The notes beneath the pieces were generated by a model. It had not been told where the DNA came from. It saw only the letters and a program-made list of their open reading frames with translations, and searched no databases. A program made the position numbers and the translations under genes. Of a stretch of 64,000 bases of DNA, positions 1 to 62,255 are shown piece after piece; positions within the stretch are counted from its first letter, which is position 1, and every line of letters starts with the position of its first letter. The DNA lies in assembly GCA_036785375.1 (NCBI GenBank), contig JAWMAR010000430.1, positions 1,612,001 through 1,676,000 on the forward strand, in the 5' to 3' direction. The DNA is from Leucoraja ocellata. Its lineage: Eukaryota.

Positions 1-182
1 GTAAACTAACAAATATTGCAGAAAATCCATTAAAGTACATTTTTTTAAATTTTAATTTTGCACGTATCTGTATATAGACATCTAATTATTTCCCATAACT
101 TTATTCAGTAAGCAGATTTCAATCAAATCATCATATGATGCTGCTTAATCTGAATTTTTCAAAACAAATTGTAATTTCCTAT

Positions 183-404
183 GTGTTTAAGAAGGAACTG
201 CAGATGCTGGAAAATCGAAGGTACACAAAAATGCTGGAGAAACTCAGCGGGTGCAGCAGCATCTATGGAGCGAAGGAAATAGGCAACGTTTCGGGCCAAA
301 ACCCTTCTTCTGAAGAGGGGTTTCGGCCCAAAACTTTGCCTATTTCCTTCGCTCCATAGATGCTGCTGCACCCACTGAGTTTCTCCAGCATTTTTGTGTA
401 CCTG
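183..404. mobile_element. Penelope-derived short element, inverted pair (palindrome 219-403) with 12-bp TSD
   Basis: Arms GGTACACAAAAATGCTGGAGAAACTCAG... and ...CTGAGTTTCTCCAGCATTTTTGTGTACC. Direct repeat GTAATTTCCTAT at 171-182 and 405-416. Confidence 0.75.
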
Positions 405-4726: not shown

Positions 4727-4911
4727 TAAGTATCACATTCCAGTTACGTATTGAGACCATTTTCAGAGGCTATTAATAACAAATACTAACTCCTATTATA
4801 CATTTGAATTCCAAAACATGTTTTTAGATATATAATCAACATATAATGATATGAACTTACAACTGATTTGTTCCCACAATGTACTTTCTAATAACAAAAT
4901 TATGTTGCCTG

Positions 4912-5035
4912 TTTAAGAAAAAAACTGCAGATGCTGGATGAATTGAAGGTGGACAAAAATGCTGGAGAAACTCAGCGGGTGAGGCAGCATCAATGGAGCG
5001 AAGGAATAGGTGAAGTTGCCTCTTCAGACCTCTTC
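4912..5035 (-). mobile_element. Penelope-derived short element
   Basis: Same AACTGCAGATGCTGG...AATGCTGGAGAAACTCAGCGGG family. Flanked by AAATTATGTTG(C/T)CTG at 4897-4911 and 5036-5050. Confidence 0.65.
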
Positions 5036-5210: not shown

Positions 5211-5580
5211 CTGTAAAGTTAATTGGATTGGAAATCTATTTGAATATCCAGAATGTCACATAATTTCATTGTGATTGCCTTGGACCTGGTCTACTAAATA
5301 CAAGCAAAACCATTTTCTGTTTTTATCCAGTAAGCATGAAATACCCAATGTTACCATTTTATTTGATGCAATTTCAAAAGAGCCAAGAATAATTAAAGTA
5401 GACATAAAAAAAAAATGAACAATGATATTGCACAAAATATAGTAAGGTCTAAATAAGAATGTAAACATAACTATACATTTAATTACTTTAAGCATCCAAG
5501 ACATAGAAATTCAAGCACAGCCAAAGAAATGCTGGAATCTATTCCCTGTGATTGATTGGTTGGTCCTGTGTCATTGGGAA

Positions 5581-5675
5581 TAGACACAAAATGCTGGGGT
5601 AAGCCAGTGGCACAGGCAGCATCTCTGGAGAGAAGGAATGGGTGAGGTTTAGGGTTGAGACACTTCTTCAGACTC
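5581..5675 (-). mobile_element. Penelope-derived short element with degenerate hammerhead motif
   Basis: AGACACAAAATGCTGG...GTTTAGGGTTGAGACACTTCTTCAGAC. Confidence 0.6.
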
Positions 5676-6197
5676 TGATATTGGAATGGGCCTAATGTTC
5701 ATGGAACCTGGGAAGAGGCATCTGAGAGTGGGCCAAAGCATTAGCACAGAAGTTGTCATATAATTGTTCAGAGGGAGATCAGGTCAGGGATGCTATCTGT
5801 TGTCAAAAGTCAACTCAATCAACAATGACAGAGGTAGTTTCAAATAGGGTTAAGCCACCTCTCTGAATATATATAGGGATGGACCCAGTTGCTTATTTAC
5901 TTTGCATTTCTGTAGCTATATAAATGTGCCTGCCATTAGAGGCCATCAAGACCCTGATGCTAGAAGCCCCACATTCTACTAGCTTATTCTGAGTCCCCCT
6001 AAACTGCTAAGTTTTATGCAGAATGCTGTTGGTCAAACCACAGAGTCGTGAAACTTGCTCAGCGATTATTTTAGATCCTCAGTATACCATCTACATTTAT
6101 CAGGTGTTTAATGTTCTAAGAATAATATTAAATCCCCTTGACAATGCCTCAGCAAAATCAGGCCCAAAATAAGTACACAATGTTCTGATGGTACTTA

Positions 6198-10850: not shown

Positions 10851-11329
10851 TCTGATTGAAAAGTCAATAACCAGAAATGGTTGCTCTGTTTCCTTTGCCA
10901 TGGTTAGACCTGCTGAATATTTACAGCACTTTCTCTTTTTAATTCAGGTTTAAGGCATCTGCATTTTTTTTGCTTTACGAGGGAAATGTTTTATCTGTGT
11001 GAATAAAGATGAATACTGGAAGAATTCAATGTGTCGAACAATATGTGTGAGGGCAAAAGATATAGGTTGATATTTCAGACCCTGAGCATTAGGACTGAGA
11101 GGGGGCAGGAAAGATTTCCAGCAGATTGCAGTACTTTGAGGGTTTGAATAGAGGCTGGTAGGTGTTAGGTAGAATCAGGTGGGGAGGGGACGATGGGCAG
11201 ATAGAACCAGGGGTGGGGGGAGAACGAAATGGCAGCTGGACAGAGTGGCTTTCCAGCGACAAAAAATATTCATTTCATTAGTTTGGTTCAGTGGACAAAA
11301 AGTATTATTAATAATGTAATACATTAATA

Positions 11330-12020
11330 GAGACACTAAGAACTGCAGATGCTGAAACCACAAAGTGGCATAGATCGCAGGTCAGACAGGACATCTCTGG
11401 AGGACATGGATAGGTGATGTCTCGGGTTGGGACCTTTCTTCAGACTGATTGTAGTAGGGGGAAGATAGCTTGAAAAGGAATGGGATGAGACAAAGCCTGG
11501 TAAGTGATAGGTGGATATAGATGAGGGGTGTTGATTGGTCAATGGTGGACAAAGGCTAAAGATAAAAAGGAGACATGAGGATGTCAGATAAAAAGAACAA
11601 GAGGAATGAAATGTAAAGCCAAAGGGAGTGATATGGATGGAAGGGAACAGGAAGCAAGGGGAGAAAGGGGGCAGATAGTGGAAGAAATGAGTGGGGTTTG
11701 GGGGGACTGCCCAATGCTCGCCCCTCTCCTCCAACCCACCCCCACCCCATTCCACCCATATCCCTCCTTCTAGCTTTACATTTCACTCCTCTCCTAATCT
11801 GACACCCTTTTGTGCACTTTCCATCCTTGGTTTATGGCCACCCAACTGGCAATCAACCAGTCCCTCACCTCTATCCACCTATTACTAGTTGGGTTTTGTC
11901 CCACTCCCACCTCTTTTTCAGTTTTCTGCAATCAGTCTGAAGAAAGGTCCTGGATCAAAACATTGCCTGTCCTCCAGAGACGCTGTCTGACCCACCGAGT
12001 TACTCCAGGACATTGTGTTT
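11330..12020. mobile_element. Inverted pair of longer Penelope-derived terminal repeats
   Basis: A purine-rich arm (11330-11705) is mirrored by a pyrimidine-rich arm (11706-12020). Each arm has a degenerate CTGAAGAAAGGTC... hammerhead-like box. Confidence 0.65.
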
Positions 12021-12581: not shown

Positions 12582-13561
12582 CTGTGGAAGACAAAAGCAG
12601 AAACCGGTCTAAATTCACCTCAAGATAACATCTTTCCAAAACTGAGGATAGGCTTTATATATCAATCACACAGACACAAGAAACTGTACACGCTGAAATC
12701 TTAAGCAAAAAACAAACTGCTCAAGTTACTCCAGCACTTTTTTCTATTTTGCACAGGAAAATCACATTCTGCTTGTTTCCGACTGATGGTGTTCCACAAA
12801 CCCAGTCAGACTTCAACCATCCTAATGCACCACACTGTCATTCATTTTTCTCCATGGTTTCTGTGATCTACATTACACATAAATTAATTTTTGAATTTGT
12901 ATTTTTTGGGGAGAAATAGAATAGTTTCACTTTAATTGTTCAAATCAAGGTTAAAATATATAACTTTAAAATTTTAACATGCTTACCAAATGTTATATCC
13001 ACTATATTCACCCTAGTGCATAAATAATGCATTTAAGTAATGACTTTTTTTTTCATTTCAGTTGACCATCATTATTTTATCAGGAGCATCTGACATGTAA
13101 TATTTTTCCATCACATGACATAGATTTTTCCTTTGTTTATGCTTAACCCATACATTATTATCATTGATATATTATTTTAGAACCATATTAAAGAACGTGA
13201 AAGACATGCATAAGAGAAATCTGTTGACTCACCTGAGCACATCCTTTAAAAACTCAACCAACCTACCTGGAGTTCTACTTGATCTATGATCAAGTGGGCA
13301 TAACTCTGGGCAGAAATGTGTGTCATCGAGCCTAGTATAGTGGTGTGAAAAAAGAGACTGCAGATGCTAGAATACGGAATAAAAATCAGAACACTGGAAG
13401 AACTAAGCAGGTCAAATGGCACCTGTGGAGGCAAAATGTTTGTTAACCTTTTGGGTTGCAACCTTGCAGCACGACTGAGAGGGAAGAGAAAAGATTGCCA
13501 GTTTTTCCAGCAGTAGAGGTGAAGGTGGGACAGAGAGGCCAAACACAAATTGGAAGACTGA

Positions 13562-13759: not shown

Positions 13760-14010
13760 GTATCTCACTTTCTGCTTGTCAGCTTACAGCCCAATGATAT
13801 GAACATTGAATTCTCCCAGCTTAACATAACACATACCCTCAGTGTCCCTTTCCCACACCCTCACAGCCATGTTGTTTTCTTCTCCTTTTCCCATCCATTC
13901 TGCGACCCCTTCCCCAGTTTGGTTCCATCTGCCCAATATCCACTGCACATCTACTTCCGTCTTTCAACAACCAGTCTTTGCCCCACACCTCCCTCGTACT
14001 GCTTTATATT
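13760..14010 (+). mobile_element. Penelope-like element 3' fragment
   Basis: Encodes ...SLQPNDMNIEFS, a typical end of a PLE ORF, followed by a CT-rich tract like that in 11706-11930. Confidence 0.5.
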
Positions 14011-17000
14011 GGTAAACCTTTCTTTGTAAATATTGCAATGCCCTGTGTTACTATAGCATCTAAATTATAGATTTGGAAGATAAATATTTTAATTTACAGC
14101 ATTTTTAAATCAACATAGAACTTTCTCATCTTATTTTATAAAAAGCCAGACCTCTTAATTCATCTAAGAATTAAACATGACTGGAGTTCATTTCTTAAAC
14201 AGATTGTTGATTACTAAAGCCTGTGCAGTTCACGTTTTAATTACTTCCCACTGTATTTCATCATAAATACTTTTTTTCATCCCTTAGTCATTCAGTTAAA
14301 TTTGCCTTTCTCTAATTACGTAACTCCTTTATCCTTCTGCATAAGTAAATGATCTAAAATCTGTAATCATTGACGTCAACATTTTCTAAATCTTTTCAAC
14401 ATCTTTACTAATGTACTTTACTTATGTATTATGTTTAATACTCAGTGTACAGTCGCACTAAAGCATGTTATCATTTATTTGTACATTGGTTTCAAAAGAT
14501 TAGACATTACTCCTGACATTCACAGAAATAAATCTATTTGGGAACTGACATTTAAATGAATTAGATTTGTGAAAGGATCCTTGTAATTTTTAGTAATCCA
14601 TCTTCCTCTAATTTGATTTATTTGTTGTTTAACAGACACAGTAAAGAGCATAATATATCTAATCCTGTAAGTCTCAACCAAAATCTTCAGTGAAAAATGA
14701 GGATGATTATTTACGTGGCCAGAGATTATAGTTAAAAAATTAGAACTATTGTAATACATATTTACATGGAATTATTCCCCCCCCAACACAAAACAAAAAA
14801 GAATTATGGTGTAATGTGCAACGTAATCTGCAATAATAACAGAACATTTTGGAAATACTCAACATATTGGCTGTGGTAGAAAAGGGAAGAGTTAACATTT
14901 TAGGTTGTTGACTTTTTCTTAATTTCAACCTCAATGCCCAGTAACGTGTTGCTAGGTGACGAATGTCTTTGAATGTGACGCCTTTTCTATTAAATGATGC
15001 TTCATTCACAATTCAAGGTTGAATGGCTGAGATTAAAAACCCACTATTGAGCAAACAACAACATAGAACCATGAGCTGATGCTCTGCTTTACAGCATTGC
15101 CCTGTCTACCAGAGGGTTTCACAGTGACAATCACAGGTAGAGACAGGATTTACCAGTCAATTCACTGCTCACAACCTGAGGCGATATGATAACTCAATTG
15201 AGAAAGAACCTAAAGTAGTGTTAAACAAAATCACCAAGGATTCAATATATTTGGTTCAATTATATAAACATATTAAATGTTTTGACAATTGATGGAATTC
15301 AAAAAAGGTTTGGGGTCAATCTTGATCTAAAGAACCTCATAATTATGTACAAGATACAGGAAAGGCAGAGAGTGGCATAGAGCTCATTAGATTATGTACT
15401 TTGGCAGATTATTTGATGGAGTAGGTTTAATTCAGTTGGTGCAATAATATATTGGATCCACATTTCCCCTCTGATACACACATTAAAAGATCAGTTTGAT
15501 GGATTATGGATTTGGCTGTGCTGTAAAAGAGGATAATGGTCAGCAAAGTAACAAGTTTGCTCCCAGATTCATTGATGTCTCGCTGATGGTGGCTCACATG
15601 ATTGTATTGCCTGATTATGTGAAGAAAATGTCATCAGTAGAAACCTATTGCCTGGATGATGATAGCAGGAGTCGGCATCCACAGCCCTCGCAGTGGGGAT
15701 TCCAAAGCTTTACAATACTGTGTAAAGCAATCAGTCCTACCTCAGCTGGAGATGGCCATCTCCATAATCCAAAAATATGTCCCTTTGTTCTAGAATGTTT
15801 GTCTTTGTCCAAGTAAAGAGTAGCTATCTTCTCAAAGATAATAACCCAACAATTACATGTGGATTTTCACCTAGAGCTTGGAAATTACATCATATGACAT
15901 GATACGATGACAGGTATACCAACCCTTGCCATTCGGCAGGAAAGTGTTGAGCACGGGACCAGAAGTGATGGGCGGGGGGAGAGAAGAGAACGTCTTGTCC
16001 TCCGATAGGCAGGTCACATATGTTGTCTAGTTTCCCATCAGATATGTATACCGGTATAACTGGAGATAGTGCTCTAGTGAGGAGACATCCTGGGCCCCTT
16101 GATTCACAAAATATCAGCTGAGAGCATCCAGAAAAGTGATCTGAGCAGCCTGCCTTTCTTTGAAGTGTTATGCGTAGCACTAAAGATTTTCACAGTTCCA
16201 CTGTACATGTGACAATAATAAACTAAACCTTGTAGAACCTGAAAAAGGAGGAAACTGTAAACACACTGCTGGTACATGGATATGCACACGAACATTTTGT
16301 TCAGAAGTACAACATTATATTGGTTTGCCTTATCATAAGAGGATATCTTAGAAATGTTATCTAGAACAGTGTTTTTTGATGGCATAGAGTATCATTGCGA
16401 CCATTTCTGAGTCACTGGGCACTGCCTCCTGAGGTTCTATCTCGTGAACCTAACTCAATTTCAGGGCACATGGATTCCAATCTCCCGGATTCTTGTACAT
16501 TGGCTAATACACAATCCCAGAAGGTTGACATAGGAAGTCCATTAAGTAAATAAGTTGCTTACCTACATCATTATGCCCCAATCTGCCACACTAAAGTAAA
16601 CTTGTGACACTTACACTCCCAAACCTGAGGCATCCTTGATCTCTTCCACCAATGTTTGCCAATCCCAATATTCCCCAGGTACACCCTCCCCCGCTCCTCT
16701 CCAACCCTGTCAACAAAAATTGCAAGGCTCTCAGCCCCTAATCCCATCAAGAATTGGATGCTCTAAATTTCCACGACAAGCCTGCCTGCCCACCCCAGCA
16801 CTATTCCAATTTCAGACATTCTTGTCTCGTATCAACTCCTGGTTTCTGCATTATGTAGCTACAGGTGGTTTAGGAACTGCTTTTCTGAAGTTTGAGGTTC
16901 TGCGGTATTGTTTTTCAAGCACCCGCTAATGTAAAATACAGCAAGCAAGTAAGCTAAAATAGAAATAAGCAAAAAAAAAAAGTTAATTCAATGCTCGCAG

Positions 17001-33300: not shown

Positions 33301-33426
33301 ATAGACAATAGACAATAAACAATGGGTGCAGGAGAAGGCCATTCGGCCCTTTGAGCCAGCACTGCCATTCACTGTGATCATGGATGATCATCCCCAATCA
33401 GTACCCCGTTCCTGCCTTCTCCCCAT
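33301..33426 (-). mobile_element. CR1-type LINE 3' terminal fragment
   Basis: (AGACAAT)n tail followed by GGTGCAGGAGAAGGCCATTCGGCCC. Similar short ends occur at about 54965-55040 (-) and 59780-59840 (+). Confidence 0.65.
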
Positions 33427-35365: not shown

Positions 35366-36499
35366 TGTTCAGAGTAAAAATTGTGCATCACTGGTTAGTG
35401 GGACTCAATGGTTAATTTCAATGGGAATAGACACAGTAATCAGTAAGAGCAATATTGTACAGTCAGCATTTTAAAGTTTTAAATGTCATGAATCTAAAGC
35501 TGTGGAAACCTCTCTTCTAATGATGGGATGTATACATTCACAGTCCTTCCATCATGTGATTAACTGGGAGTGTAAAAGCTCCCTTACATCTGTTCCCTTG
35601 TTTACTCCTAGTCACTGAGTGCTTTGTCACATATGTCACACATAACTGCACTGCCGCTCATTTGTGACATTCAAACACATTGTGGCAAAGCTTTGGGACC
35701 CAGATTCAAGTTCAGTTTGAAAAGAGGGCAACAGCTGCTATAATTTATCACTGGATCTAGAGTTTGAAGCCTTGATTTAGTAGCTTGCAGAACAGCCTGA
35801 AGAAGTCTGAACTTAATGCCTCCTTAAGGTGATTATTCACACTTTCATGGCAAAAGGTTTTCCACTGTCAGACTTTAATACTCTTGGTTATTTCATTCTA
35901 TTCAGCTGATAGTTATACATTTTGTTAATACATTATTACATTATTTTCTGAACTAAACATCTCTGAGCAACGGTTGGTCTAGCCGTCAAGAAGCCTGTTC
36001 TGCACAATCTCCGAAGTGACCCAGTGAAGACTCACTTCTACGCACAGCTCTAGATTGCTTTCTCAATGGACATTAGCAGATCGCAGGCAGCAGATTGTCT
36101 GATTACTTTGAGCCGCAGATTAGTACGTTAACAGGCGAGGAATACAAGGATTAAGAGTATATATCCAGGTAGAATAATGAGAAATAATGTCATCCTGCAA
36201 GTTGCTGTTATTACAACATGACAAAAAAATCTCAGTAATACAAATATACTACAAATATAACTGTTCCAGGCAGGTAATTTAATTATTTACGGTGGATTCA
36301 CACGCTACAAGTTCAAGGACAGGTACATGGATTTAGGTACAGGGAAGATTTAGCGGGATATGGGGCAAATGCGGGCAGGTGGTGTAGATGGGGCATCTTG
36401 ATCAGCATGGATGAGTTGGGCTGAAGGGCCTGTTTCCATGCTGTTATAACTTTATGACTCTAAGTTTAATATTAGTGTGCAGCCTGAACTAAATATTGT

Positions 36500-36655
36500 A
36501 GAAACAAAGAACTACAGATGTTGGTTAATACACAAACTAACACAAAGTGATGGAGTAACTCAGCAGGTCAGCCAGCATCTCTGGAGAATATGGATAGACC
36601 AGTAACGTCACCTATCCATGTTCTCCAGAGATGTTGCTAGACCTGCTGAGTTTCT
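36500..36655. mobile_element. Penelope-derived short element, inverted pair
   Basis: AACTCAGCAGGTC...CATCTCTGGAGAATATGGATAG is mirrored by CTATCCATGTTCTCCAGAGATG...GACCTGCTGAGTT. Confidence 0.65.
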
Positions 36656-37947
36656 AAACCAAATATCAATGTTTAATCTTGAGATAGAAATCAGAACACA
36701 AGGACTGAAGTGATTTTTAAATAATGTAGGGTGAGACTGTGTCCTTCTGGTTGCCTACATTGAAATGCAGTCTGAATTACACAATTGCTGAAGCGTTAGT
36801 ACAAAGAAAACTTGCTGTTGCATGCGGTCTAAAAATAACAGCTCGGGTTATGTCATGCGCCTGAATTGATACGAACAAAAGACTTTGCTACTGTGCCTTC
36901 TAATCGCTGATAGAACCAAGTAACAAATGCCTGCACTGTATGGTCAATGTTTAATGTGGTAGCTGTATTGTGTGGACCCTCGAAAACGCGATGAAGTGGA
37001 AACTTTTATTAGGCTTGACAGGAAATGACCTTTATCAATAAATGTAATTACACCTGTACACTTACTAATTGATGTGGATATATTTGATGTTAATTACAGT
37101 TAATTAATAAATTGACGATCAGATAAGGCTTTACAAGTATAAAACAAAACGCTGGAGGAACTTAGCTGGTCAGGCAGAATCTGTCTGGAGAAATGGACAG
37201 ATAGCATTTCAAGTTGGGACCCTATTTCAGATGGAGATGGTACAATTTCAAGTGATGTGGACACCTCGAGGAGCTGTTAGTAACATTTCTGAATTTTTCC
37301 TTTATGGTGACCACAATACTTTAAACCAGGTAAGATTGATTTGTGTTATTTAATTCTTGTACTTAACATGACAGTGTTTACTGCTCTACCATTGTTGATA
37401 AATTATCTGCCTACAATCTTCAAATGTTGAGGGATTAAAAAAAACAGGTCAATATAAATCAAAATGCAACCTTATAAATAGACTTCAACTGTCATTATTA
37501 TCAAAGAAATAAAACTGAATTCTGCCATTCTTATTGAAGCATTAAAATGAAGACCCTATTAAATGAAAAGAACGTTTGCTCATACCTTTTGTGCAACACT
37601 GGAAACATCCTTGGAAATGACAAATGGTGAATAAGTGGAGGTTTTCATCAAACCCCCAAGTTTTCAAAAGTACTTCGTATTCGGTTTCTGAAGAACAGTT
37701 ATTATTTTAAACATTGTAGAAATATATAAGCCAAGTGAGATCCCATAAGAAGAAATTTGGTGAAATTGTTAATACATCTGCTTTTAGCCTGGCCAAGTGA
37801 AGTGGGTAGTTGGTTTCAACTCTCATCCATAAAATGGTGCTTCCGGCATTCTTTCAACGCTGCAGTGAAGTTCCAACTGAGATTATATGTTCATAAGGGA
37901 AAAACCAAAAATGTTTATTTCCATGGAAACAGTGCTTCTGGGATCAA

Positions 37948-38067
37948 AGGTAGACACAAAAAGCTGGAGTAACTCAATAGGACAGGCAGAATCTCTGGAG
38001 AGAAGGGAATGGGTGATGTTTCGGGTCGAGACCCTTCTTCAGACTGATTATGTTATTTCCTACACAT
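37948..38067 (-). mobile_element. Penelope-derived short element with 12-bp TSD
   Basis: TTCTGGGATCAA at 37936-37947 and 38068-38079. Carries the hammerhead motif at 38015-38042. Confidence 0.7.
38015..38042 (-). ncRNA. Minimal hammerhead ribozyme motif in a Penelope-derived repeat
   Basis: Reverse complement reads CTGAAGA-A-GGGTC-TC-GACCC-GAAAC-ATC (perfect helix II; ATC is consistent with CpG decay of GTC). Confidence 0.55.
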
Positions 38068-38143: not shown

Positions 38144-38832
38144 AAGTAAGTAAGTAAGTTTATTGGCCAAGTATTCACATACAAGGAATTTGCCTTGGTG
38201 CTCTACCCACAAGTAACAACATGACATATAGTGACAGTTACGAATGACTCAGAAAACACTAAACATTAATAATAATAAAACATTAATGATAAAACACCAT
38301 TGATCAAGCATGTGAACCAACAAAATACCAGATCAAAGGGAGGCTACAGATTTTTGGCTGTTGAGTAGAGCAACTACTCGTGGATGAAAACTGTTTTTAT
38401 GTCTGGCTGTGGCAGCTTTGACAGTCGCCTTCCAGAGGGAAGTGATTTAAAGAGTTTGTGGCCAGGGTGAGAGGGGTCAGAGATGATCTTGGCCGCTTGC
38501 TTCCTGGCCCTTGCAGTGTACAGTTCATCAATGGAGGGAAGGTTGCAGCCAATAATCTTCTCTGCTGATCGGACGATTCGCTGCAGCCTCCAGGTGTCGT
38601 GCTTGGTGGCTGAGCCAAGCCAGACCACGATGGAGAAGGTGAAAACAGACTCTACGATGGCCGTGTAGAATTGGACCATCATTGCCTGTGGCAGATTGTG
38701 CTTCCTCTGTTGTGCCTTTACGACTGTGGCGTCGATGGTAGCCCCCCACTTAAGGTCCTTGGAGATGATGGTTCCCAGGAACTTTAAAGACTCCACAGAT
38801 GTGACTGTGGTGTTGTTGATGGTGAGTGGGGT
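38144..38832 (-). mobile_element. Rex1/Babar-type LINE, 5'-truncated
   Basis: ORF 38374..38913 VESLKFLGTIISKDLKW...KAQQR...FYTAIVESV...LQRIVRSAEKIIG...DPSHPGH...LPSGRR, with an (ACTT)n tail at 38144-38160. Confidence 0.85.
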
Positions 38833-40184
38833 AAAAGATTGCAGAAAAAGGTCAATTTTGTATCTAAAATCTTCATTCCATGTCCTAAGCGGTGAGCTAT
38901 TATTGTGCACCAAACTTTGAAGTTAATGAAAGACCTGCCAATATTTTAAATGTTAAGAACAAAATTAATTGGGTTTGATTATAATCGTGCTCCTGTGTTT
39001 GGTAATGTCAAGTAATTGAGCTACTTAGAAGTCATTAGAAGTCATGAACTGCTCCTTTAAAAAGGTGTTTTCCATCATATATATATGGTTTAAATATATC
39101 TGTAATGTGCTGCAAAACAAAATATATATATAACTTATATATATGCTGCCTTGTATCTCATGAGATTTATATGCTTAATCGAACAAAAGAATCTGATGTA
39201 TTTATTCTTTATAACTAATATCACAACAGGCTGGTGCTCTTGCACGCTGTATCCTGGGTATTATTTGGTGTTTTGGGATGGTCTGCCTCTGCTTATGGTT
39301 GGCATACCCAGAGACAGGTCATCATATCCCCCTCATTCACCAGCACCAGCTGTTGGAGATATTTTAAACAACAATAGAGTAATTGACTGCTTTCTGGACA
39401 AATAATTACCACAGATTTTTTTTCTCTTTCAACAGACGCCAAATAAAAGAGCAGGACTCATATTGTTTGTGAACACTGTAAATTTTAAACATTGGGGAGC
39501 TAAAGGGCAACGAGCCGTCACTCTCTAGAGAGCTGACATCACAGATTTCGAAATGCGCACACTTTTTCCACATAATGAGAACTGAAGGGTGCTGCTGATA
39601 AGCATTACATTCTTTCTCAGTTACAAGCACCAGTTACAAGTTGCCAGATGGTGCAACAATTCATCTTTTCCCTCTGGAGGTGGATTCAAGTGCAGTACAG
39701 TCACAAGGAATACAGCTATCTTCCTGTTGGCTGCAAGCATACAGCACAAACTAATGTTGGATAGTCTTAAATTAACCTTTAAAAACAATTAAAAGCATAA
39801 ACAACCATCAATCAGTAAAACAATCACTTTGCACTCCACCTTAATGGTCCAGATTTTGATTTTGGCCGTAATTTGACAGCATTCACATGATCCAGGTAAG
39901 AAAATCAATTCCCTTGTTTGTGAAGCTTCCAATGGGAATGTGAGAAAAATGGGGAGGATATTTATTTGTGAGCTTTCTGCGATGGAAGGAAAGGTTTGGC
40001 AGCATTAAAACTCATAATGAGAAAATGAGAGAAAAAAACCTAAGTGGCTATTTCACATCCAAGATTTATCCAAAAAATACACAATGTTTCTGATATTCAA
40101 ACTTAAAAAAAACTTTGTACAAACTTTAAAAACACTTTAAAAGCATTAAATGCTACCAAACACATCTAATAAGGCATCTCTTAA

Positions 40185-40379
40185 TGGGCCTGTCCCACTT
40201 AGGCGATGTTTTTGGGGGACTACAGGCGACTGCTGCAAAATTTTCAACATGTTGAAAAAATGTTGACGACAATTGCGACCATTTTTGCTGTCGTAGGTTG
40301 TCGCCAGGTGTTGTAAGTGAATTCCATTAAAATTAGTCCTGGCAGTCGCCTAAAGAGTCACCTAAGTGGGTCAGACCCA
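40185..40379. mobile_element. Harbinger-type MITE
   Basis: TIRs TGGGCCTGTCCCACTTAGGCGA and TCACCTAAGTGGGTCAGACCCA with TAA on both sides. Central palindrome TTTTCAACATGTTGAAAA. Confidence 0.8.
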
Positions 40380-40621
40380 TAAATCAGGCATTAAAATAAA
40401 AAATATATATAATCTTGGAAAAGATTTCTGAGAGTTTTTTTTAGGTGTAATCCATCTGAGATGAGGAAAGGCGGAACTTGAATGGCAGAGGAAGTTTAAA
40501 TTGGATAATGTGTTGTGGTTTGGTCGGACAAACAGGCAGGACTTGTATAGTAAATGCTAGGGTGCTATAGAGTGTTGCGGGACAGAAAGATTTAGAGATG
40601 CAGGTACATAGTTCCATGAAG

Positions 40622-41425
40622 GCGATGAAACAAAAGAGCTCATTGTCGACTTCAGGAGGCACAGCACCGACTTAGCCCCCCTACACATCAACGGCGAGTG
40701 TGTGGAGAGGGTCAACACCTTCCGGTTTCTCGGCGTCCATATCGCTGCTGACATCTCCTGGACGGACAACACGACAGCGGTCATCAAGAAGGCTCAGCAG
40801 CGGCTGCACTTCCTGAGGGTCCTCAGGAAGCACAACCTGGACTCTAACCTGCTGCTGACCTTCTACCGCTCGTCCATCGAGAGCCTGCTAACATACTGCA
40901 TTACAGCATGGTATGGCAGCTGCACCATGGCAGACAGGGAGAGGCTTCAGAGGGTAACCAGGACAGCGCAGAGGATCATTGGCTGCCCTCTCCCCTCCCT
41001 GATGGACATCTACACCTCCCGCTGCCTTAGCAGGGCAAAGAAGATCATCAAAGACAGTTCCCATCCTGCGTTTGGACTGTTCGACCTGCTGCCCTCTGGA
41101 AGGCGCTATAGGTGCATCAAATCCAGGACAAACAGACTCAGGAATAGTTGCTTTCCGAGAATTATAACTACTATAAATTCAAATTCACACATGCACTGAC
41201 TACACCGCCCAACACGGACTTCCATCTGTATATATGTATATATGTATGTAGCGCCGCAGAATTTGTGCACCTATTTCCCCCCCCCCCCCCCCCCATCTCC
41301 CTTCTGTTTTTTGTTTTTTCTGTTTCTTGTTTTTTGTGCTAAATTGTATGTATGCACTGAGTACGAGCAGCTTTCAGTTTCACTGTACATGTATAGTGAC
41401 AATAAATGGCATATCTATCTATATC
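40622..41425 (+). mobile_element. Rex1/Babar-type LINE, 5'-truncated and well preserved, nested in a CR1 remnant
   Basis: Uninterrupted frame ETKELIVDFRR...VERVNTFRFLGVHI...KKAQQRLHFLR...FYRSSIESLLTYCITAWYG...LPSGRRYR, then AATAAA and an (ATCT)n-like tail. Host CR1 pieces lie at about 40440-40620, 41430-41650 and 42020-42140. Confidence 0.88.
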
Positions 41426-43696
41426 ACTGGTGGAAAGCATGCTTGCCTTCACCAATCAGAGTACTGAGTACCGGAGATAGGACATCATTTTACAGCAGCA
41501 CAAAATGTTGGTAATACCATATTTGGAGTACTGCATACAGTTCTGGTTGCTCTGCTATAGGAATGATATCATTAAACCGGAAAAGGTGGAAAAAATATGA
41601 TTGAGAGAATTTTACTGGGTCTGGAGGATATGAGCTACAAGGAAAGATTAGATCCTTATATTGAACTATGAATTATCAAATTTAGATTACTTCTAAAACC
41701 ACGTCCTTCACTGTCCCGTTTCCCCCCCTTATTTTATTAAAGAATAAATAACAATTCACAACTATGTATTCCTCTTGGGCTCGCACCGTCTCTAGCCAAC
41801 AATCAACAGATCAGGGAACTTCCTTGCCCGTGAGTCATCTGTTGCCAGTCCCATTTTCTCCAGGTTTTTTTTTCTTACTTCCAATTTCTCTCCCCTCCCC
41901 CATTTTCTTTAGGGATACTTCCTGGCCCACTGAATTTTGTGCCTTTTGTTTTGTTTTCCAGTATTTTGTGCCTATCTTTGATATAAACAAGCACCTGCAG
42001 TTTCTTTTTGTTACATTATTAATAGATAGGACGGGTCTCTGTTCCCTGGAACAGAGGAGGCTGATGAGTGACCTAAAAGAGATATATCATATCATGATGG
42101 CCATAGGCAAGGTGGATAGCTACAGTCTTTTCCCTAGGGGACATTGCAGTGCAAGTGCAAGCTCTGACTGAACCAATTAACCTAAAACGTTCTGGGATTC
42201 TCAGATGCTTATGCAGAAATCTCCAAGTAATCATCAGTTTTGATGGCAAATACTGCAGTTTTGTCATTATTACTCCATAAAATCTTTGCAAAACGTAGCT
42301 GTGCACTATAATTTTTAAACATTGAGAAATTAAGAATGCCTGAGTAGAAAGCATGATGTTAATGAATTGATTTTTTTCCCTTATCTTTACTTTTATAAAA
42401 ATTGTCTGATATTACATGATGGATTGAGTTAATTACCAAGTATCTCTGGTACCTATGAAGGAAACCAAATGAAGACAACGTTAGGACGTGTGAGATGATT
42501 TTGTAACATGATTTCCCTTCTGACATATTTACTTGAGACCAAAAAGAAAAATCTTGGACTCCATGTGCATGTTCCCATGATTGTTTAGATGAGACTAGTA
42601 CACAGTTTAAGAGAAACTATTGATCAATAAGTATGAACAATAACTCTGGCAGTAATTGACTCGGCCAGTCAATTCGGGAGAAAAATCCAAATACTGGCTA
42701 TAATGCAGAAGGTTTACAGCATCGCAAACAGAATGTATAATCTTTTCAGAATCTTTTCGTTGTACATGGTTCATGTTACAATGACAATAAAGAAACTATT
42801 CTATTCTAGAAATAAACCATTTGATGGACATACCAGATTCGTTTGAACTAGACTGGATATATTTCATGTAACTCAAGTGAACTAAGTTCCCAACCCAAAA
42901 TATCACTTGTCCATTCTCTCCACAGCACTATGTGTTTTGCTCATGAATCAATTTTGTCTGACAGAATGAACAGGCAATGTCCACAATCTCCTTTAATGGA
43001 AGAGAGAAGACTCCATGGAATCCTATTTTCACCTTAGTTTCTAGATGAAAACAATAACAGTGTCTTCCTTCAGTGGTGTTAAACAGTTTGAGATATGGTT
43101 TGATTACTGTCTAAAATAAGTGATTCACTAGGAGTATTTAATAGTGGGAATAAACCAAATTATTGTGAAACTATACAATCCTGTGAGTGTGAAATCCATA
43201 CAACATGTTGATTAATTAAGATATCTACTGTATATGCAAGTCATTAAAATGGTTAATATGTTCTGGCAACATAATTTCAAATTTCAAATAATTAAATTGT
43301 GAGTTTGTGGCTTTTACCCAATACTCCCAGTTGACTCGAGATTAACTGATTGTGAAAACTAATAATAGTTATGGGTAATTGCTTTGTTCCTTTTCCAATT
43401 AATGTAATTTATTTAAAACGCAGCATGAGCTTCTACTATTCTCTGCACCATTCCGTTACCTTCCAGAATGTAACTTTAATTAATAGAGGTTACGCAAAAT
43501 ACAAATCACCCATAACTCAAGAACCCTATCTGTGGATGACCTATGATTATGTATTAATTAAACTTTTTCTTGTGAGTTTTGTTTTGTTATAAATGGGGCA
43601 TGAACATCCTACGACTCCCAGAATATCTGAGTAGGCTGCAGGCAGTGTAGCTCTGAGGTAATTATTTAACTGGCCCATTATTTTTAAATCGTAGGG

Positions 43697-43795
43697 AAGG
43701 AGAAGGGTCTCGACCCGAAAAATCACCCATTCCTTCTCTCCATAGAATAGATGCTGTCTGTCCTGCTGAGTTACTCCAGTATTTTGTGTCTACCC
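43697..43795 (+). mobile_element. Penelope-derived short element, truncated in the hammerhead core
   Basis: GAAGGGTCTCGACCCGAAAAATCACCCATTCC...GAGTTACTCCAGTATTTTGTGTCTACC. Confidence 0.65.
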
Positions 43796-43966
43796 TCAGT
43801 TTTAAATCAGTGGCTGATTTATTACAGAATAAATGGAAAATAATGAATTTGCAAAGTTATTGGCATGATTTTGTCAAAGACTCCAAATATTGTGGGCAGT
43901 TTTAGCTGGTTGGTAGCGGCCACCTGAAGGTTGCAATTCGATTGTTGTAAAATATCTTTACGACAG

Positions 43967-44125
43967 TTGTGTTTAATAAAGAAATGCAGATGCTGGAGAA
44001 ACTCAGCGGGTGAGGCAGCATCTATGGAGCAAAGTCTGAAGAAGGGTCTCGACCTGAAACGTCGCCTATTCCTTCGCTCCATAGATGCTGCCTCACCTGC
44101 TGAGTTTCTCCAGCATTTTTGTCTA
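43967..44125. mobile_element. Penelope-derived short element, inverted pair with 11-bp TSD
   Basis: CTTTACGACAG at 43956-43966 and 44126-44136. Arms at about 43990-44030 and 44075-44116 enclose the hammerhead motif. Confidence 0.75.
44036..44063 (+). ncRNA. Minimal type I hammerhead ribozyme motif in a Penelope-derived repeat
   Basis: CTGAAGA-A-GGGTC-TC-GACCT-GAAAC-GTC: both catalytic boxes, a helix II hairpin, palindromic ACGT in place of helix III, and a GUC triplet. Confidence 0.6.
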
Positions 44126-44289
44126 CTTTACGACAGGTTTTGTAACTTTACAAGAAATGTTTGATATTTCCTTCAGACAACTTGTATATCAGATTATCTT
44201 TTTTTGCTGCCAGGCTTGGAGTTAGGACATTCATGCCTCATATTCAGTGGTTTGTAGAGTCAAACCATACTGCAGAGATGTGGATTCTG

Positions 44290-44480: not shown

Positions 44481-44596
44481 TCTTCCATCTCACAGAGCTA
44501 ACATGAATAAATTACCGTAAACTTTAGTCGAATTCATGAAACTCTGGAAATATAGCAGGTAATTTGCAGCATGAGATAGAACTTCTTTAGTAAATT

Positions 44597-44820
44597 GGGC
44601 GGCATAGTGGAGGAGCAGTAGAGTTGCTGCGGTACAGCGCTTACAGCACCGGAGACTCAGGTTCGATCCTGACTACGGGTGCTGTCTGTACGCGTTTTCA
44701 CACTCTCCCATTAACCGCGTGGGTTTTCTCTGATACCTTCGGTTTCCTCCCACACTCCAAAGACGTACAGGTTTGTAGGTTAATTGGCTTGACGTGAAAT
44801 GTAAATTTTCCCTTAAGTGT
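44597..44820 (+). mobile_element. HE1/V-SINE-type SINE, 3'-truncated
   Basis: GGGCGGCATAGTGG...GGTTCGATCCTGAC...GGTTTCCTCCCACACTCCAAAGAC. Confidence 0.8.
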
Positions 44821-48704: not shown

Positions 48705-48990
48705 ATGCACAGCTAGAAAGCCGCATCCTCACAGGGCCAGAGACCTGCGTTCGATCCTGATCTCGGATGCTATCTGTGTGGAGTTTGCATGTTCTCCCCG
48801 TGACCACGTGGGTTCCCTCCCACATCGCACTAAAGTGCAGGTGGGCAGGTTAATTGCCCCCAGTGTGTAAATTAGTGATGGTAATTAATGGAAATGTCGA
48901 GGGCATTGGAATTAAAACAAATTGGAACATTGAAAACAAAATGGAATTATTGTAGAATTTGTGTAAATGGGTGATTGCTGGTCTGTTTCT
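48705..48990 (+). mobile_element. HE1/V-SINE-type SINE, older copy
   Basis: GTTCGATCCTGATCTCGG...GTGTGGAGTTTGCATGTTCTCCCCGTGAC. Confidence 0.7.
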
Positions 48991-50689
48991 AATGACATTG
49001 CTTCATCATTGCTAATTGTGGTTCGAGGCCTTGGGCCAGGAATGTGACTGGCATCACTACAAAGTGTGTGAAGATTAAAAACAAATTGCACATGCTGGAA
49101 ATCTGATAACCTAAAAATATTGGAAACACCCAGCAGTTCAGGCAATATTTGTGAAAAGAGACACTGCCAACATCTCAACTCATGGACCCTTTATCTTGCA
49201 CGTCTGTCAACTTTCTCTCTGTACAGATACTGACTGACTTGTTGAGTGTTTCCAGTCTTTTCTGTTTATTGTTCCACAAATTATGTAATGGATGTGAAGG
49301 AAATGTTTTGCAGGTTGGTTACTGCTGTAATCTTGTCTGATTTCTGTTTTGCCACTGAATAATTTATTATTGAACTCGACGGATGGATCCACAATTATCA
49401 GGGTTAGACCTCAATAAAGGGAATCGACTCTAAACCGCATTTTCCTTTGTCAAAGATGCTTAACTATCTCCAGGTGAACAGTTTTGATTGACCATACTAT
49501 ATTGCAACACCTGAAGAGCCATCCTACTGTTGATCTGGAGAAGAATGGTGAAATCAGAAAGCAAATAAAGAGGGAATTTTGCTCCTCTGGCAATTAGTTT
49601 AGACATACAGGTTATGAAGTGCCTTTAAGAGTTCACCTTTTTTTTAAACTATATAATATCATTAGCAAAAGTTGAGAGTAGGGTGATTTCCAGGTAAACA
49701 TTATATTGTACTTCTATTGAAGTAAAATAAAAGTGATGAAAAGTGATGAAATATACCCAAATTTATTCATTTGGATTAAGGAAGACTTTTTCACAAGGTT
49801 TTTGAAATAATTGATGAAATAACGTTCTCAGTGGAATCGGTAACAATATTATAATAATACAGGAGAAGGTGATTAAATTAATTGAGGTGCTTTTGCTAGA
49901 GTGATTTATGCTTGGAAGTGAGACTGGGTTACAATATATATACAGCACCTTCTCTTTTTCTTTTCATCCATGGCATCTCAGCTATTTAAAAACATTGTGG
50001 GGGTATAGTTCTATTTGAAATAACTATGCATATTTTATTATTTCTTTACATAGACTGGGTTTAATTACACCTTTATCTGCACTGGTGTTGTATAAATGTG
50101 CCCTAAGTACTGGCTTGGGATGTGTAACCACTTTCAATGTCTAAAAATAGTCAATTTCAATTAGCTGTATTATTTTTACTTTATTAGTTTGTTTTGAGGG
50201 AAATTATTATTAATCTTTGAAGGATGGATTCACAGCAATAATATAAATCCCCTCCTTGAGTAATTTTTTGGAAGAAACATTAATGTTAATTGCCTGAAGT
50301 AGGGTGAGGAGTGGTTAAGAAGGGACTTCCAGAGAGACCTTTCCCCGTTTTTGCCCAAGAACAAAGCTAAAAGACATTTACTGGATGTCAATCCCACCTG
50401 GAATCCATCCATGCAAAGCAACCAGAAACAAAAACATTTTGTTGACACAAAGAACTGCAGATGCTTGTTTTTGTTCATCCTTAACAGAATGCCAAATCTC
50501 AAATCAATTAAAATATAATCATGGAAATGTAACTTGCAAAGTAAGCTTTTAATTTGGCCTGAGATCTGAACTACAGATAATGTTGGTCATGCTCAGGAGG
50601 TTAATATTGTTGGAAAGGGAAACTGAGCTGTTATTTCCGGCTCCATCACCTTTCATTAAGATCTAAACTACTTTGAGAAAATAAATTTT

Positions 50690-51006
50690 GGGCGGCACGG
50701 TGGCACAGCGGTAGAGTTACTGCCTTACAGCACTTGCAGCGCCTGAGACACGGTTTCGATCCTGACTACCAGTGCTGTCTGTACAGAGTTTGGACGTTCT
50801 CCCCATGACCACGTGGGTTTTTTTTCAGATCTTCGGTTTCTTCCTACACTCCAAAGACGTACAGGTTTGTAGGTTAATTGGCTTGGTTAAGTGTAAATTG
50901 TCCCTAGTGTGTGTGTAGGATGGTGTTCGTGTGCGGGGATCGCTGGTCGGTGCGGACTCGGTGGGCCGAAGGGCCTGTTTCCGCGCTGTATCTCTGATTA
51001 AACTAA
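50690..51006 (+). mobile_element. HE1/V-SINE-type tRNA-derived SINE, full length
   Basis: A-box TGGCACAGCGG, B-box GTTTCGATCC, V-domain GAGTTTGGACGTTCTCCCC...GGTTTCTTCCTACACTCCAAAGAC, and LINE-like tail GGGCCGAAGGGCCTGTTTCC. Confidence 0.85.
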
Positions 51007-52599
51007 GTATACATTAAAAATCCAGCACAGTCTTCATGCTCACTTTCTCAAATCAAGGGAAATAAAAACTCAATTGTTCTGCTATATATATATAAGTCTC
51101 TGATTACAGCTAAAGAGCCAGGAAGACGGTGTAAAAGCTCCTTAACTGCATAGTAATTAAGTATAAATATTGCAGAATTATTTGGTGTAGAAAATGAGAA
51201 GTAGGTAACATTGAAGCAAAGCTACCTATGACCTCTTGAACTGTTAATCAATTCATTCATTGCAATTTTGCCACATCACCGAGACAGGCAAACAATGGGC
51301 TGCTAAGCAACCGCAATTGAACATGACATAAATTAGGACCTTATAATTGGCAACAGCTGATAGGGGCTGGAAAAGCGAAGCCGTGGTGGCTTGGCTCCTG
51401 TGAAGAAGTCATTCCAAAAATGGAAGGTGGGGCTGTGAGCCTGTTTTGGTCCAAGGGCTTAGACAAAGACCCAGTGTGGGCCACAAACAGATGAAACTGT
51501 GGTCTGTGGAATTTATCCAGGAGTAATTCATCTGCAGGAAATAATGTATTATCAAAACGCCACTAACATTCAGCAGGCAAGTAAAATTCCCAAGTTGCTT
51601 ATGGGGAACTGAGCTGGTTTAGGGAAGGATGATACTATCTTTAGGACCCAGCCTGATGCAGCATACACTGTCATTCACAGGGTAACCTAGACGTCTTTGT
51701 GCTTCAGTATATTTCAAGTGATTTTGAAATACTCATAGATTGAAATGCATTTCCCTTTCCCTTGGAATGGCTAGTATTCCATGTCCGTTCATCGTTAGAG
51801 CACCCTGCCATGTTTTACTGCTCCTTGTTGCAGTGGACACCAATTTTAAAAGCAACAAACTAAATGGTGATTGATGGAATGTACTTACAGGCATATCAGT
51901 GTTACTTACAGACACAAACTGTGCCCTATTATGTGCAGTTTAGTGGTTTATTGTACAACCGGATACCTATTTTAAAAAAGTGCATTACGTCATATCAGGA
52001 CACGAATAACAACGTGACATTTAACATGCACTCCATAGATGCTGCTGCACCCGCTGATAAAGTTCCATCTTTTTTTTCTATTTGTCACTGCAATTTACAT
52101 ATTCCTTTTATGGACTGTTGCAGAGGGATAACCTGATAATTCAACAAACCACTTTGGTTCCTGTCTAATGTCTTCTGTTTGGAATAACCCATATATTTTG
52201 ACACCCTCGACATTTAATGTTCCCCTGCCATTTTGGTTGCTCAGGAAGTATCTACTGCAGTCATGGTGGGCATTACAGTGAAGTAGATTTGAGTGCTCTG
52301 AGTACATTTGATGGAATACATTAGTGTCAGCTTCAATTTCCATAAAAACTAATTTGAATTGAGCTTTGGAGATAACCCTTTCAGTGCAGATTAAAATAAT
52401 GAATAACCAAAACATGAAAGACAATTGAACTCGAAAACTAGAAGCCAAGTGCAAGGCATTGAAGTCCCATAATTAAGGGTGATCATGCAAAGGAACACAG
52501 GCTGAATTTGATGTCAAGCATAATACACTGGGTATCTGGATAAAGAATGCCAACAAAAAAAAAGAGAATTATGAGCATAGCGAATGGACTATTAACATA

Positions 52600-53352
52600 G
52601 ACTAGGGGGACTCTGTCTCTGTTGTGACTAAGAGAAGGGGGTTGCATCACATCTTGAACAACGGATACAGTGGATGAGGTTGGAGGAAGTGCAAGTGATT
52701 GTCGGGGTCCCTGAACAGAGTCGAGGGAAGACGTATAGGGACAGATGTGCATCTCCTGCGGTTGCAGGGGAAGGTATCTGGGGAGAGGGTGGTTTGGGTG
52801 GGAAGGGATGAGTTAACCAGGGAGTTGCGGAGAGAATGGTCTCTGTGGAAGGCGGAAAGGGATGGAGATGGGATAGGAACACGTGACTCGTGGTGGGATC
52901 CTGTTGGTGGCGAAAATGTTGGAGGATTATGTGTTGTATGCGACGGCTGATGGGGTGTGAAAGGTAAGGACTGGAGGGACTCTGTCTCTGTTGCGACTAG
53001 GGGGAGGGGAAGCAAGAGTGGAGCTGCGGGGTACTGAGGAGACACTTTAAGGGCCTCATCTATGTTGGAAGAGGGGAGCCCCCAATCCCAAAAAATGAGA
53101 ACATCTCGGATGTCGTGGTATGGAACACCTCATCTTGGGCGCAGATGTGGCGTAGACGGAGGAATTGGGAGTAGGGGATTAGGGGATGGAGTCTTTGCAG
53201 GAAGCAGGGTGGGAAGAAATATAGTCGAGATAGTTGTGGGAGTCAGTGGGTTTGTAATAGATATTAGTCAATTGTCTATTTCCCATGATGGGGACAGTGA
53301 GATCAAGAATGGGGAGAGAGGTGTCGGAGAAGTGAATTTGAGTTCAGGATGG
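52600..53352 (-). mobile_element. Penelope-like retroelement fragment (RT C-terminal part plus start of GIY-YIG endonuclease), frameshifted
   Basis: Minus-strand translation gives HPELKFT...LDLTV...IYYKPTDSHNYLDYISSHPASCKDSIP and FPCNRRRC...TCTSSNLIHCIRCSRC. Confidence 0.85.
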
Positions 53353-58083: not shown

Positions 58084-58197
58084 TTGTATTTAGGTGTTGT
58101 ACTTGCTGGAGTTGTCATCCTGACTGGCTGCTTTGCCTATTATCAAGAAGCAAAGAGTACCAATATCATGGCGAGCTTTCAAAAGCTGGTTCCCCAG
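58084..58197 (+). CDS. ATP12A: ATP12A exon (TM2)
   Basis: Acceptor gtgtttcag, donor gtacga. Encodes [38 protein letters not shown]. Confidence 0.95.
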
Positions 58198-60633: not shown

Positions 60634-60683
60634 GTAAGCTGGAAGTAGCTGATAGTATTTTCACATTTATCTTGGATAAATGA

Positions 60684-60792
60684 GTCTGAGGAGAGGTCTC
60701 GACCCGAAACATCACCCATTCCTTCTCTCCAAAGATGCTGCCTGCCTGCCTGCCTGCCCCGCTGAGGTACTCCAGCATTTTGTGTTTATCTC
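60684..60792 (+). mobile_element. Penelope-derived short element in an ATP12A intron
   Basis: Hammerhead box followed by CACCCATTCCTTCTCTCC...GCTGAGGTACTCCAGCATTTTGTGT. Confidence 0.65.
60686..60713 (+). ncRNA. Minimal hammerhead ribozyme motif, sense strand of an ATP12A intron
   Basis: CTGAGGA-GAGGTC-TC-GACCC-GAAAC-ATC, flanked by AATGAGT and ACCCATT, which can pair at 6 of 7 positions as helix I. Confidence 0.5.
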
Positions 60793-61849: not shown

Positions 61850-62255
61850 TCCTGAGCAATAAACAAAGTGCTGGAGAACTAGTGAGGATCTGTGAAGGGA
61901 AATGGACAGATAGTGTTTCATGTGTAGGAAGGAACTGCAGATGCTGGTTTAAACCGAAGATCGACACAAAATGATGAGTAACTGCGGGACAGGCAGCATC
62001 TCTGGAGAGGAATAGGTGATGTTTTGGGTTGAGACCTTTCTTCAGACTAGTTAGGGGGAAAAGGGTAACAAAAGATATAGACGATGTAGAGAGATAAAGA
62101 ACAATGAATGAAAGATATGTAAAAAAGTAACATGATAATGGAAACAGGCCATTGTTAGATGTTTCATGTTGTGATCCTTCTTCAGACTCTCACCTATTCT
62201 TTTTGCTCCATGCATTCTGCCTGACTTAATGAGTTCCTCCAACAGATTTTAGTTT
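61850..62255. mobile_element. Nested Penelope-derived elements
   Basis: A younger copy at 61924-62159 is flanked by TGTTTCATGT (61914-61923, 62160-62169) and sits inside an older copy of the same family. Confidence 0.6.

Follow-up and report, generated by a model that had tools for sequence, protein, structure and literature searches.

The window analysed is a 64-kb stretch of DNA from the skate Leucoraja ocellata. An Ig V-set exon at 9094-9375 on the minus strand is most like sodium channel beta-3 (SCN3B-like, E 4e-23), and exons of a Na,K/H,K-ATPase alpha gene, best matched by the non-gastric H,K type, lie at ~56800-62630 on the plus strand. A family of MITEs, whose terminal inverted repeats are related and which contain internal palindromes, is present at 4680-4729, 13561-13753, 22126-22759, 26456-27193 and 40181-40383; we take it to be Harbinger-like. 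SINE copies, presumably V-SINE/HE1-like, are abundant (10739-10844, 18540-18596, 20225-20505, 44595-44820, 48727-48826 and 50688-50995), and LINE RT fragments and 3' ends, which we assume to be CR1-type (CR1/HER1), occur at 25957-26133, 30546-30671, 33308-33386, 41481-41594, 54965-55039 and 59750-59831. Two ORF fragments (38377-38922, minus strand, and 40612-41196, plus strand) match Pfam ALKBH8_N and are most likely LINE C-terminal relics rather than parts of a host gene.

The focal insertion (43967..44125) sits precisely between the copies of an 11-bp duplication (TSD) at 43956..43966 and 44126..44136, read on the plus strand, so that the boundaries given in the earlier note are exact. We read it as a head-to-head pair of pLTR stubs of a Penelope-like element (PLE), with an inverted long-ended arm and a forward short-ended arm. 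The inverted arm (43967..44034, minus strand) begins ~11 nt 3' of the cleavage site and extends as far as the long (tail) end; relative to the copies at 183 and 4908 it lacks 27-28 nt between a pair of CCAGCAT repeats. A minimal type I hammerhead occupies 44036..44063 on the plus strand. Its CUGAAGA (44036-42) is followed by an extra A, helix II (44044-55), GAAA (44056-59), the CG palindrome and GUC, with a putative cut at 44063/44064. Helix II includes a G10.1:U11.1 wobble, and helix I has only 2 bp (U:G and G:C). From the cleavage site the pLTR segment continues (44064..44125, plus strand) to the short 3' end, at ~+90 to +94 from C3. The insertion also contains a palindrome absent from the earlier note, whose arms (43990-44034 and 44072-44116) are 96% complementary; the predicted hairpin has an energy of -98.2 kcal/mol (z -14.6). 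The sole same-strand neighbour within 340 bp of the focal hammerhead, at 43700, lacks CUGA.

A dispersed family of arms

With the focal element alone as a blastn query, all 10 of the other loci listed earlier as a dispersed family were recovered (E 7e-29 to 4e-7), the match at the locus listed at 61850 being 61963-62048. Two profile searches gave 25 and 27 arm matches in the window, 10-11 of these arms having themselves served as seeds, and the reversed window sequence gave no match to either profile. Loci absent from the earlier list were found at 13344-13467, 41901-42009, 42878-42925, 49066-49269, 52031-52057 and 62143-62248. With hand-set bounds, the family comprises ~19 loci and 2,946 bp, or 4.6% of the window, which corresponds to ~1 locus per 3.4 kb of the 64 kb. 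Distinct subfamilies, young and old, are discernible among the arms. ARAGORN found no tRNAs, and the repeats are therefore without a tRNA head. A scan of bacterial and archaeal genomes with the 28-nt hammerhead box of the earlier note gave no matches.

An arm consists, in order, of a pyrimidine tract, YAG, U, CUGAAGA, A, a 4-bp helix II with its tetraloop, GAAA, CG and UH; 3' of the hammerhead follow ~65 nt, the short end, a tail of ~38 nt and the long end. Among the 27 matches of one profile, the 3' end lies at +91..106 from C3 in 11, at +124..137 in 10 and elsewhere in 6, where the long-end class is bounded by the end of the model and was confirmed at three TSD-bounded inserts. Eight loci are head-to-head inverted pairs. 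In our reading, six of them combine a long with a short end and two a long end with one shorter than the short end, and none has two long ends.

Exact TSDs of 9-12 bp flank 5 of 16 loci (183-404, 4908-5035, 37948-38067, 43691-43799 and 43967-44125; null, 20 of 2000), and a further 9-mer duplication flanks a compound locus; at 10 of the 16 loci tested no TSD of at least 9 nt was found. The forward arm starts within ~10 nt of C3 in all five TSD-bounded inserts. Core-containing copies run past the cleavage site, the exception being a stub at 62158-62190, and because they continue through this site their templates are taken to have been uncleaved.

The TSD-bounded insert at 183..404 is a head-to-head pair with a long and a short end between 12-bp duplications (171-182 and 405-416), and its cores carry U4A and G12A. 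At 4908..5035 (minus strand) there is a single long-ended arm with helix II deleted and an 11-bp TSD. The insert at 37948..38067 (minus strand) joins a short-ended arm to an inverted tail stub, has a 12-bp TSD and keeps 11 of 11 core bases, with the palindrome decayed from CG to CA. A short-ended arm without CUGA is likewise joined to an inverted tail stub at 43691..43799 (plus strand), where the 9-bp duplication is partly tail-like and therefore ambiguous.

Short-ended arms are also present at 5580..5676 (minus strand, G12T), 37141..37233 (minus strand, a divergent subfamily with a decayed core) and 60680..60791 (plus strand); the last keeps 11 of 11 core bases, but has an A10.1:C11.1 mismatch and has lost the palindrome. 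The plus strand further holds a decayed long-ended arm (41901..42009), a decayed hammerhead stub (42876..42925) and a 27-nt family fragment found by blastn (52031..52057). The head-to-head pair at 36497..36655 is without most of the hammerhead and has its junction near the cleavage site. In the large head-to-head pair at 11330..12020, with long and short ends and hammerhead cores at ~11444 (minus) and ~11936 (plus), each arm has ~240 nt of pyrimidine-rich 3'UTR, the hammerhead and the tail. The old copies include an arm at 11012..11300 (minus strand), whose very decayed hammerhead (profile E 0.22) is preceded by a 3'UTR homologous to 13826-14030, a long-ended arm at 13344..13545 (minus strand) with a decayed hammerhead and 3'UTR (profile E 1e-7 and 4e-11), and a head-to-head pair with long and short ends at 49066..49269.

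The compound locus at 61850..62250 is made up of a long-ended arm with 3'UTR (61911-62157), a hammerhead stub (62158-62190), an inverted arm (62190-62248) and a further old arm (61850-61923); this locus and the arm at 60680 lie within ATPase introns. The stub lies on the minus strand, terminates precisely at C17 and abuts the 3'UTR of a different arm. Its junction could be the fossil of a template jump onto a self-cleaved RNA end, although for this single case chance is a plausible explanation.

Family sequence also appears in annotated proteins. The 42-aa translation of the 183 arm is 88% identical to a Leucoraja erinacea gene model, and as a query it retrieved 5 of 26 candidates, at least three of them from Leucoraja; neither an RT nor a GIY-YIG domain was present in any of the five. 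Arm sequence is translated within the unrelated gene models P0156, P0158, P0159 and P0160, and a Mobula 'chitinase domain' isoform (P0003) is made up of PLE sequence. Such gene models probably reflect either annotation artefacts or exonisation. The literature covered, which lay outside Dfam, Repbase and most subscription papers, yielded no account of skate or ray PLE hammerheads, and the family may well be catalogued already.

The hammerhead motif, its decay and its predicted folding

That vertebrate genomes carry thousands of dispersed minimal hammerheads (min-HHRs) in PLE termini has been known since 2014 (PMC4209133). The majority motif of the skate arms fits the min-HHR consensus of Cervera & de la Pena (Fig. 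S3 of PMC4209133). The earlier identification of a minimal type I hammerhead of PLE origin agrees with that figure in CUGANGAH, the G10.1-C11.1 pair, GAAA, the palindromic 15.2-16.2 and NUH. The arms share with the published pLTR motifs CUGANGA+H, G10.1-C11.1, GAAA-C-G-U-H, the absence of helix III and a U-rich upstream flank, and in both cases the motifs are mostly single and dispersed, with opposite-strand pairs 100-700 bp apart (PMC4209133). The same layout of a 4-bp helix II and tetraloop recurs in the Fig. S3 rows for Acropora Neptune and Nematostella, and no chondrichthyan is found among the entries of Fig. S3 and Table S1 that were consulted. Helix I is limited to 2 proximal bp in the skate arms, in contrast to at least 3 bp in most Fig. 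S3 rows; those rows also include GUU triplets and, in a few cases, a helix I of 2 bp (PMC4209133).

A family-independent min-HHR descriptor gave two matches in 128 kb (44036+ and 38042-), both of them family members; shuffles gave a mean of 0.02, with one match in 4 of 200. The 28-nt box, which had been ascribed to the best copies, is a consensus with no exact copy. Two copies carry it with one mismatch, compared with none in 100 shuffles, and these are the same two that the descriptor found. Helix II had been drawn as GGGTC-TC-GACCC, which would leave a 2-nt loop, but it actually consists of 4 bp closed by a CUCG, UUCG or CCCG tetraloop.

Decay was scored in 13 aligned arms, which were picked for a visible core. 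All 11 invariant core bases are kept in four of them, and the majority sequence matches the core. The CG palindrome (15.2-16.2), which takes the place of helix III, is kept in 2 of 13, and CA, TG or TA, as expected from CpG decay, is found in 8 more; only the hammerhead at 44036 (1/13) combines the full 11-base core with the ACGT palindrome. Intact copies of the three CpGs number 5, 5 and 2 among the 13 arms, and it is through CpG decay that G12 and the ACGT palindrome are lost. The extra A after the CUGANGA box, described earlier, is present in 11 of 13. At 10.1:11.1 the pair is G:C in five arms, G:U in three and A:C in five. The core is also better conserved than its flank: identity is 0.93 in non-CpG core columns and 0.83 in 3' columns (p=0.023, 11 arms), a comparison biased by the selection of arms with a visible core. 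Covariation of the stems (score 0.164) is not above that in shuffles (0.180; 360 of 500 reach the observed score), and the stems are 67% paired in register versus 15-37% when slid. The old arms 13467(-), 11083(-) and 49195(-) are too decayed to score and suggest a different, longer helix I than that of the young subfamilies; two of them have an upstream CAGTC, and the 3' strand is compatible with a complementary strand that has undergone CpG decay.

No hammerhead family was found when the window was scanned with Rfam at E<=1. Nine sub-threshold matches to Rfam miRNA and UTR families were rejected, as they derive from hairpins and score far below the gathering thresholds. The 183-404 palindrome has sub-threshold matches to three miRNA families at 244-377 and is likely to give rise to false miRNA annotations.

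In the three young long arms the upstream sequence is 77-85% pyrimidine, and YAG immediately precedes U2.1. YAG stands 1-2 nt before the core in 11444(-), 11936(+), 62048(-), 38042(-), 13467(-) and 11083(-), and a pyrimidine tract precedes it in each except the 5'-truncated 38042. In D. virilis Penelope an intron of 75 bp (PMC2377424) ends at helix I (PMC4209133), and by analogy the YAG is possibly a 3' splice site. Because a U-rich flank also belongs to the general min-HHR consensus (PMC4209133), the site is a candidate only.

In folding calculations on the full focal element, helices I and II have a probability near 0, because the long hairpin is predicted to form and the downstream CCUUC to pair with the core. 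Neither 44026-44075 by itself nor the whole 43967-44125 hairpin is expected to self-cleave. Monomer folds of seven copies predicted no hammerhead; helix II was complete only in 38042 and partial in the 11444 copy. The double-hammerhead fold was calculated at -1.5 kcal/mol for the focal copy, compared with -15.9 kcal/mol for its best cofold, and at -6.1 versus -21.1 kcal/mol for the script-internal majority sequence. These gaps of ~14-15 kcal/mol are uncalibrated, as no positive-control ribozyme was folded. Distal extension of helix I raised the predicted energy. The proposal of a very abundant self-cleaving RNA family is therefore not sustained, since one arm in 13 is near-intact and even that one is not predicted to fold. 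Most likely the ribozyme would cleave only in source transcripts, as a weak enzyme assisted by a dimer or by protein, and by analogy with the anole Poseidon element almost all dispersed copies would be catalytically dead passengers.

Relationship to Penelope-like elements

The RT/GIY-YIG relic mentioned in the earlier note was confirmed as a frameshifted PLE at 52643..53334 (minus strand). It includes the RT thumb, the Cys linker and the start of GIY-YIG, but its 3' end is missing and no pLTR is attached; the missing 3' end accounts for the lack of a hammerhead. The relic aligns to PLE proteins in pieces across frames and is matched by 152 of 155 homologues. Its long relatives P0004 and P0005 have RVT_1 and GIY-YIG matches, named relatives come from Mobula and Hypanus, and one fragment shares 65% identity with a PLE protein of Mobula. 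Pfam found no family in the three frames of the relic or in the 54-aa fragment, and identification came from homology search instead. A PLE is likely to have mobilised the elements, as suggested earlier, but mobilisation by the copy at 52600-53352, to which this role was given, is not supported; that copy is dead and without a pLTR. No full-length PLE is present in the 64-kb window.

A second PLE relic, at 13769..14030 (plus strand), consists of the C terminus of a GIY-YIG endonuclease (EN; 13769-13825) followed by a 3'UTR and lies head-to-head with the 13344 arm. At the junction, the old PLE is interrupted by a MITE copy (13545-13769). Five batoid EN C-termini, combined into a profile following a weak tblastn hint, gave a match to 13769-13819(+) with E 0.0011 (best control, 3.6), whereas a generic profile of the EN C terminus, built with 28 of 160 proteins, gave a non-significant E of 3.4 at 13775. 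The 3'UTR that follows the EN C terminus matches the sequence upstream of the old arm 11083 (0 of 1000 shuffles; best non-self of 592 real tiles). It also matches the sequence upstream of arm 13467 (17 of 1000), the arm head-to-head with the EN relic. Matches to the young UTRs were not significant (82 of 1000 for 11450-11690, 233 of 1000 for 11690-11930 and 462 of 1000 for 62050-62157). The proposed connection of the consensus to PLE termini thus holds for the old subfamily, where UTR homology links it directly to the EN C terminus, but the UTR matches do not extend it to the young subfamilies. These appear tied to the PLE by their shared hammerhead-plus-tail homology.

The layout of the source element is, from 5' to 3', the EN C terminus, a pyrimidine-rich 3'UTR, YAG, the minimal hammerhead, ~65 nt, the short end, a ~38-nt tail and the long end. 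A separate non-autonomous family had been postulated. However, the longer arms run into the PLE 3'UTR and one old locus reaches the EN C terminus, and because of this continuity the arms are explained by truncated ends of an autonomous element. A PLE ORF that starts in the pLTR was considered and rejected, as none of the 155 PLE proteins matches a hammerhead arm in tblastn. By inspection, no reading frame is common to all subfamilies of the arms.

The RT thumb, Cys linker and EN occur in the same order in the relic and its batoid homologues as in Neptune-clade PLEs (PMC8557442). The linker, CX2-5CxxC between RT and EN, is present in the closest homologues and frameshifted in the relic, and on the basis of this linker (PMC8557442) the source is provisionally called Neptune-type. 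Further points of resemblance are inverted pLTRs and a tail of 30-40 bp confined to one end, as is often the case in the elements described in PMC8557442; the window contains PLE fragments only. The inverted pairs, end classes and duplications seen in the window conform to the published PLE signature, in which the pLTR is inverted, one end may carry a 31-bp tail, and TSDs measure 8-10 bp (PMC3846280); the TSDs of the skate inserts are 9-12 bp, compared with 8-10 bp in the A. vaga examples of that account.

For the anole Poseidon element PAc, the published biochemistry (Frangieh 2024; PMC11167929) describes nicking and extension of both strands, with two internal RT start sites that bound the tail. 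HHR mutants insert normally, uncleaved RNA is the main template, and cleavage requires protein (PMC11167929). The skate inserts resemble PAc in the two internal RT starts that would define the tail, in the presumed nicking of both strands and in the uncleaved template, but PAc belongs to another clade and its ORF starts inside helix II (PMC11167929).

Origin of the copies

Taken together, the repeats are probably decayed, 5'-truncated pLTR stubs, solo and inverted, of batoid EN-bearing Neptune-type PLEs. The steps of their formation can be proposed from the anole Poseidon biochemistry as described in PMC11167929. The RT-EN protein would nick both strands ~10 nt apart, and the tail would be delimited by the two internal positions at which cDNA is primed, one priming event falling on the long site and one on the short site. 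The RT would copy uncleaved RNA and usually stop within ~100-140 nt, at or near the hammerhead, after which the two cDNAs would be joined head-to-head or left single. The ribozyme would be unnecessary for insertion. Inversion could alternatively arise by fold-back self-priming (PMC3846280), and the clustering of 5' ends at the hammerhead might reflect RT stalling, the 5' end of the RNA, short masters or a splice junction.

The tightness of this clustering counts against the reading as stubs and leaves room for short non-autonomous masters. The young subfamilies might be dedicated SINE-like elements of ~100-140 nt that start at the hammerhead and are mobilised by the PLE in trans. All five TSD-bounded inserts have a forward arm beginning within ~10 nt of C3, the subfamilies are distinct, pLTRs are described as enough in cis for trans mobilisation (PMC3846280), and no young arm is tied to an ORF within the window. 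However, the young arms 11444, 11936 and 62048 extend 100-240 nt into 3'UTR-like sequence, 5' truncation is reported for most PLE insertions (bioRxiv 2026.07.22.740005), and stalling of the RT, the RNA 5' end or a splice junction would produce the same clustering. We therefore regard dedicated masters as unlikely. A vestigial hammerhead in the young subfamilies, which would be compatible with the reading as stubs, is possible, though in our judgement not the better bet. The source transcripts would then not be cleaved, and the motif would be kept as a structural or protein-binding signal or by descent. The 2-bp helix I, the A10.1:C11.1 mismatch in 5 of 13 arms, the predicted pairing of CCUUC with the core, the ~14-15 kcal/mol by which the double-hammerhead fold of the focal and majority sequences is predicted to lie above the best cofold, and a report of 8 of 9 Xenopus dimers uncleaved (bioRxiv 2026.07.22.740005) are all consistent with this. 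Set against them, published min-HHRs from D. virilis, Culex and Oikopleura have a 2-bp helix I (PMC4209133), the anole HHR cleaves only with added protein (PMC11167929), the core columns are better conserved than the 3' flank, and the energy gap was obtained without a positive control.

The earlier note had called the elements retrozyme-like. Animal non-LTR retrozymes are likewise short and non-coding with a type I HHR and a relation to pLTRs (PMC7229834; bioRxiv 2026.07.22.740005), from which they are said to derive (bioRxiv 2026.07.22.740005). They are reported in one chondrichthyan (bioRxiv 2026.07.22.740005), the skate monomers are dispersed, and the stub at 62158-62190 ends exactly at C17, all of which would suit true retrozymes spreading via self-cleaved circular RNAs. 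In the published account, however, retrozymes are tandem repeats of 150-450 bp that yield circular RNAs and carry canonical HHRs (PMC7229834), whereas the skate copies are stubs, either single or inverted, that have TSDs and whose minimal HHRs are decayed. The arms do not show the helix III and 6-bp helix I of a canonical type I hammerhead, a double hammerhead is impossible between opposite-strand arms, and inverted arms, tail asymmetry and TSDs are marks of PLE integration. None of the 18 TRF rows for the window is a tandem array of the family, so that membership among retrozymes fails although the origin is shared. With sequence kept on both sides of the cleavage site as well, the label does not apply, and spread as true retrozymes is very improbable. 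Still less credible is the idea that the palindromic copies are MITEs or miRNA hairpins in which the hammerhead matches by chance. The long hairpins and the sub-threshold Rfam miRNA matches at 244-377 would fit it, but the Rfam scores are far under the gathering thresholds, the descriptor found two matches against a null of 0.02, many arms are single, and the asymmetry of the long and short ends and the EN link contradict it.

The PLE-terminus min-HHR system is already known, and what is added here is a cartilaginous-fish example at high local density. The repeats are no evidence for an abundant active ribozyme. They are relevant for annotation, because skate gene models include them as exon sequence and their hairpins resemble those of miRNAs. 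On a doubtful further reading, skates carry very high-copy 'pLTR hairpins' of 100-230 bp, perhaps with non-autonomous masters of their own, whose 5' ends are set by a hammerhead RNA landmark. If this is true, splicing at YAG would swap the 5' strand of helix I and so switch the ribozyme, and the rule of one long and one short end, together with junctions near C17, would document on a large scale, in natural copies, priming at two ends and now and then the use of a cleaved template. The short TSD-bounded inserts display both RT start sites and the inversion junction in less than 250 bp, and copies collected genome-wide could test the PLE mechanism, namely twin priming versus fold-back, the stop of the RT at the hammerhead and the copying of cleaved RNA.
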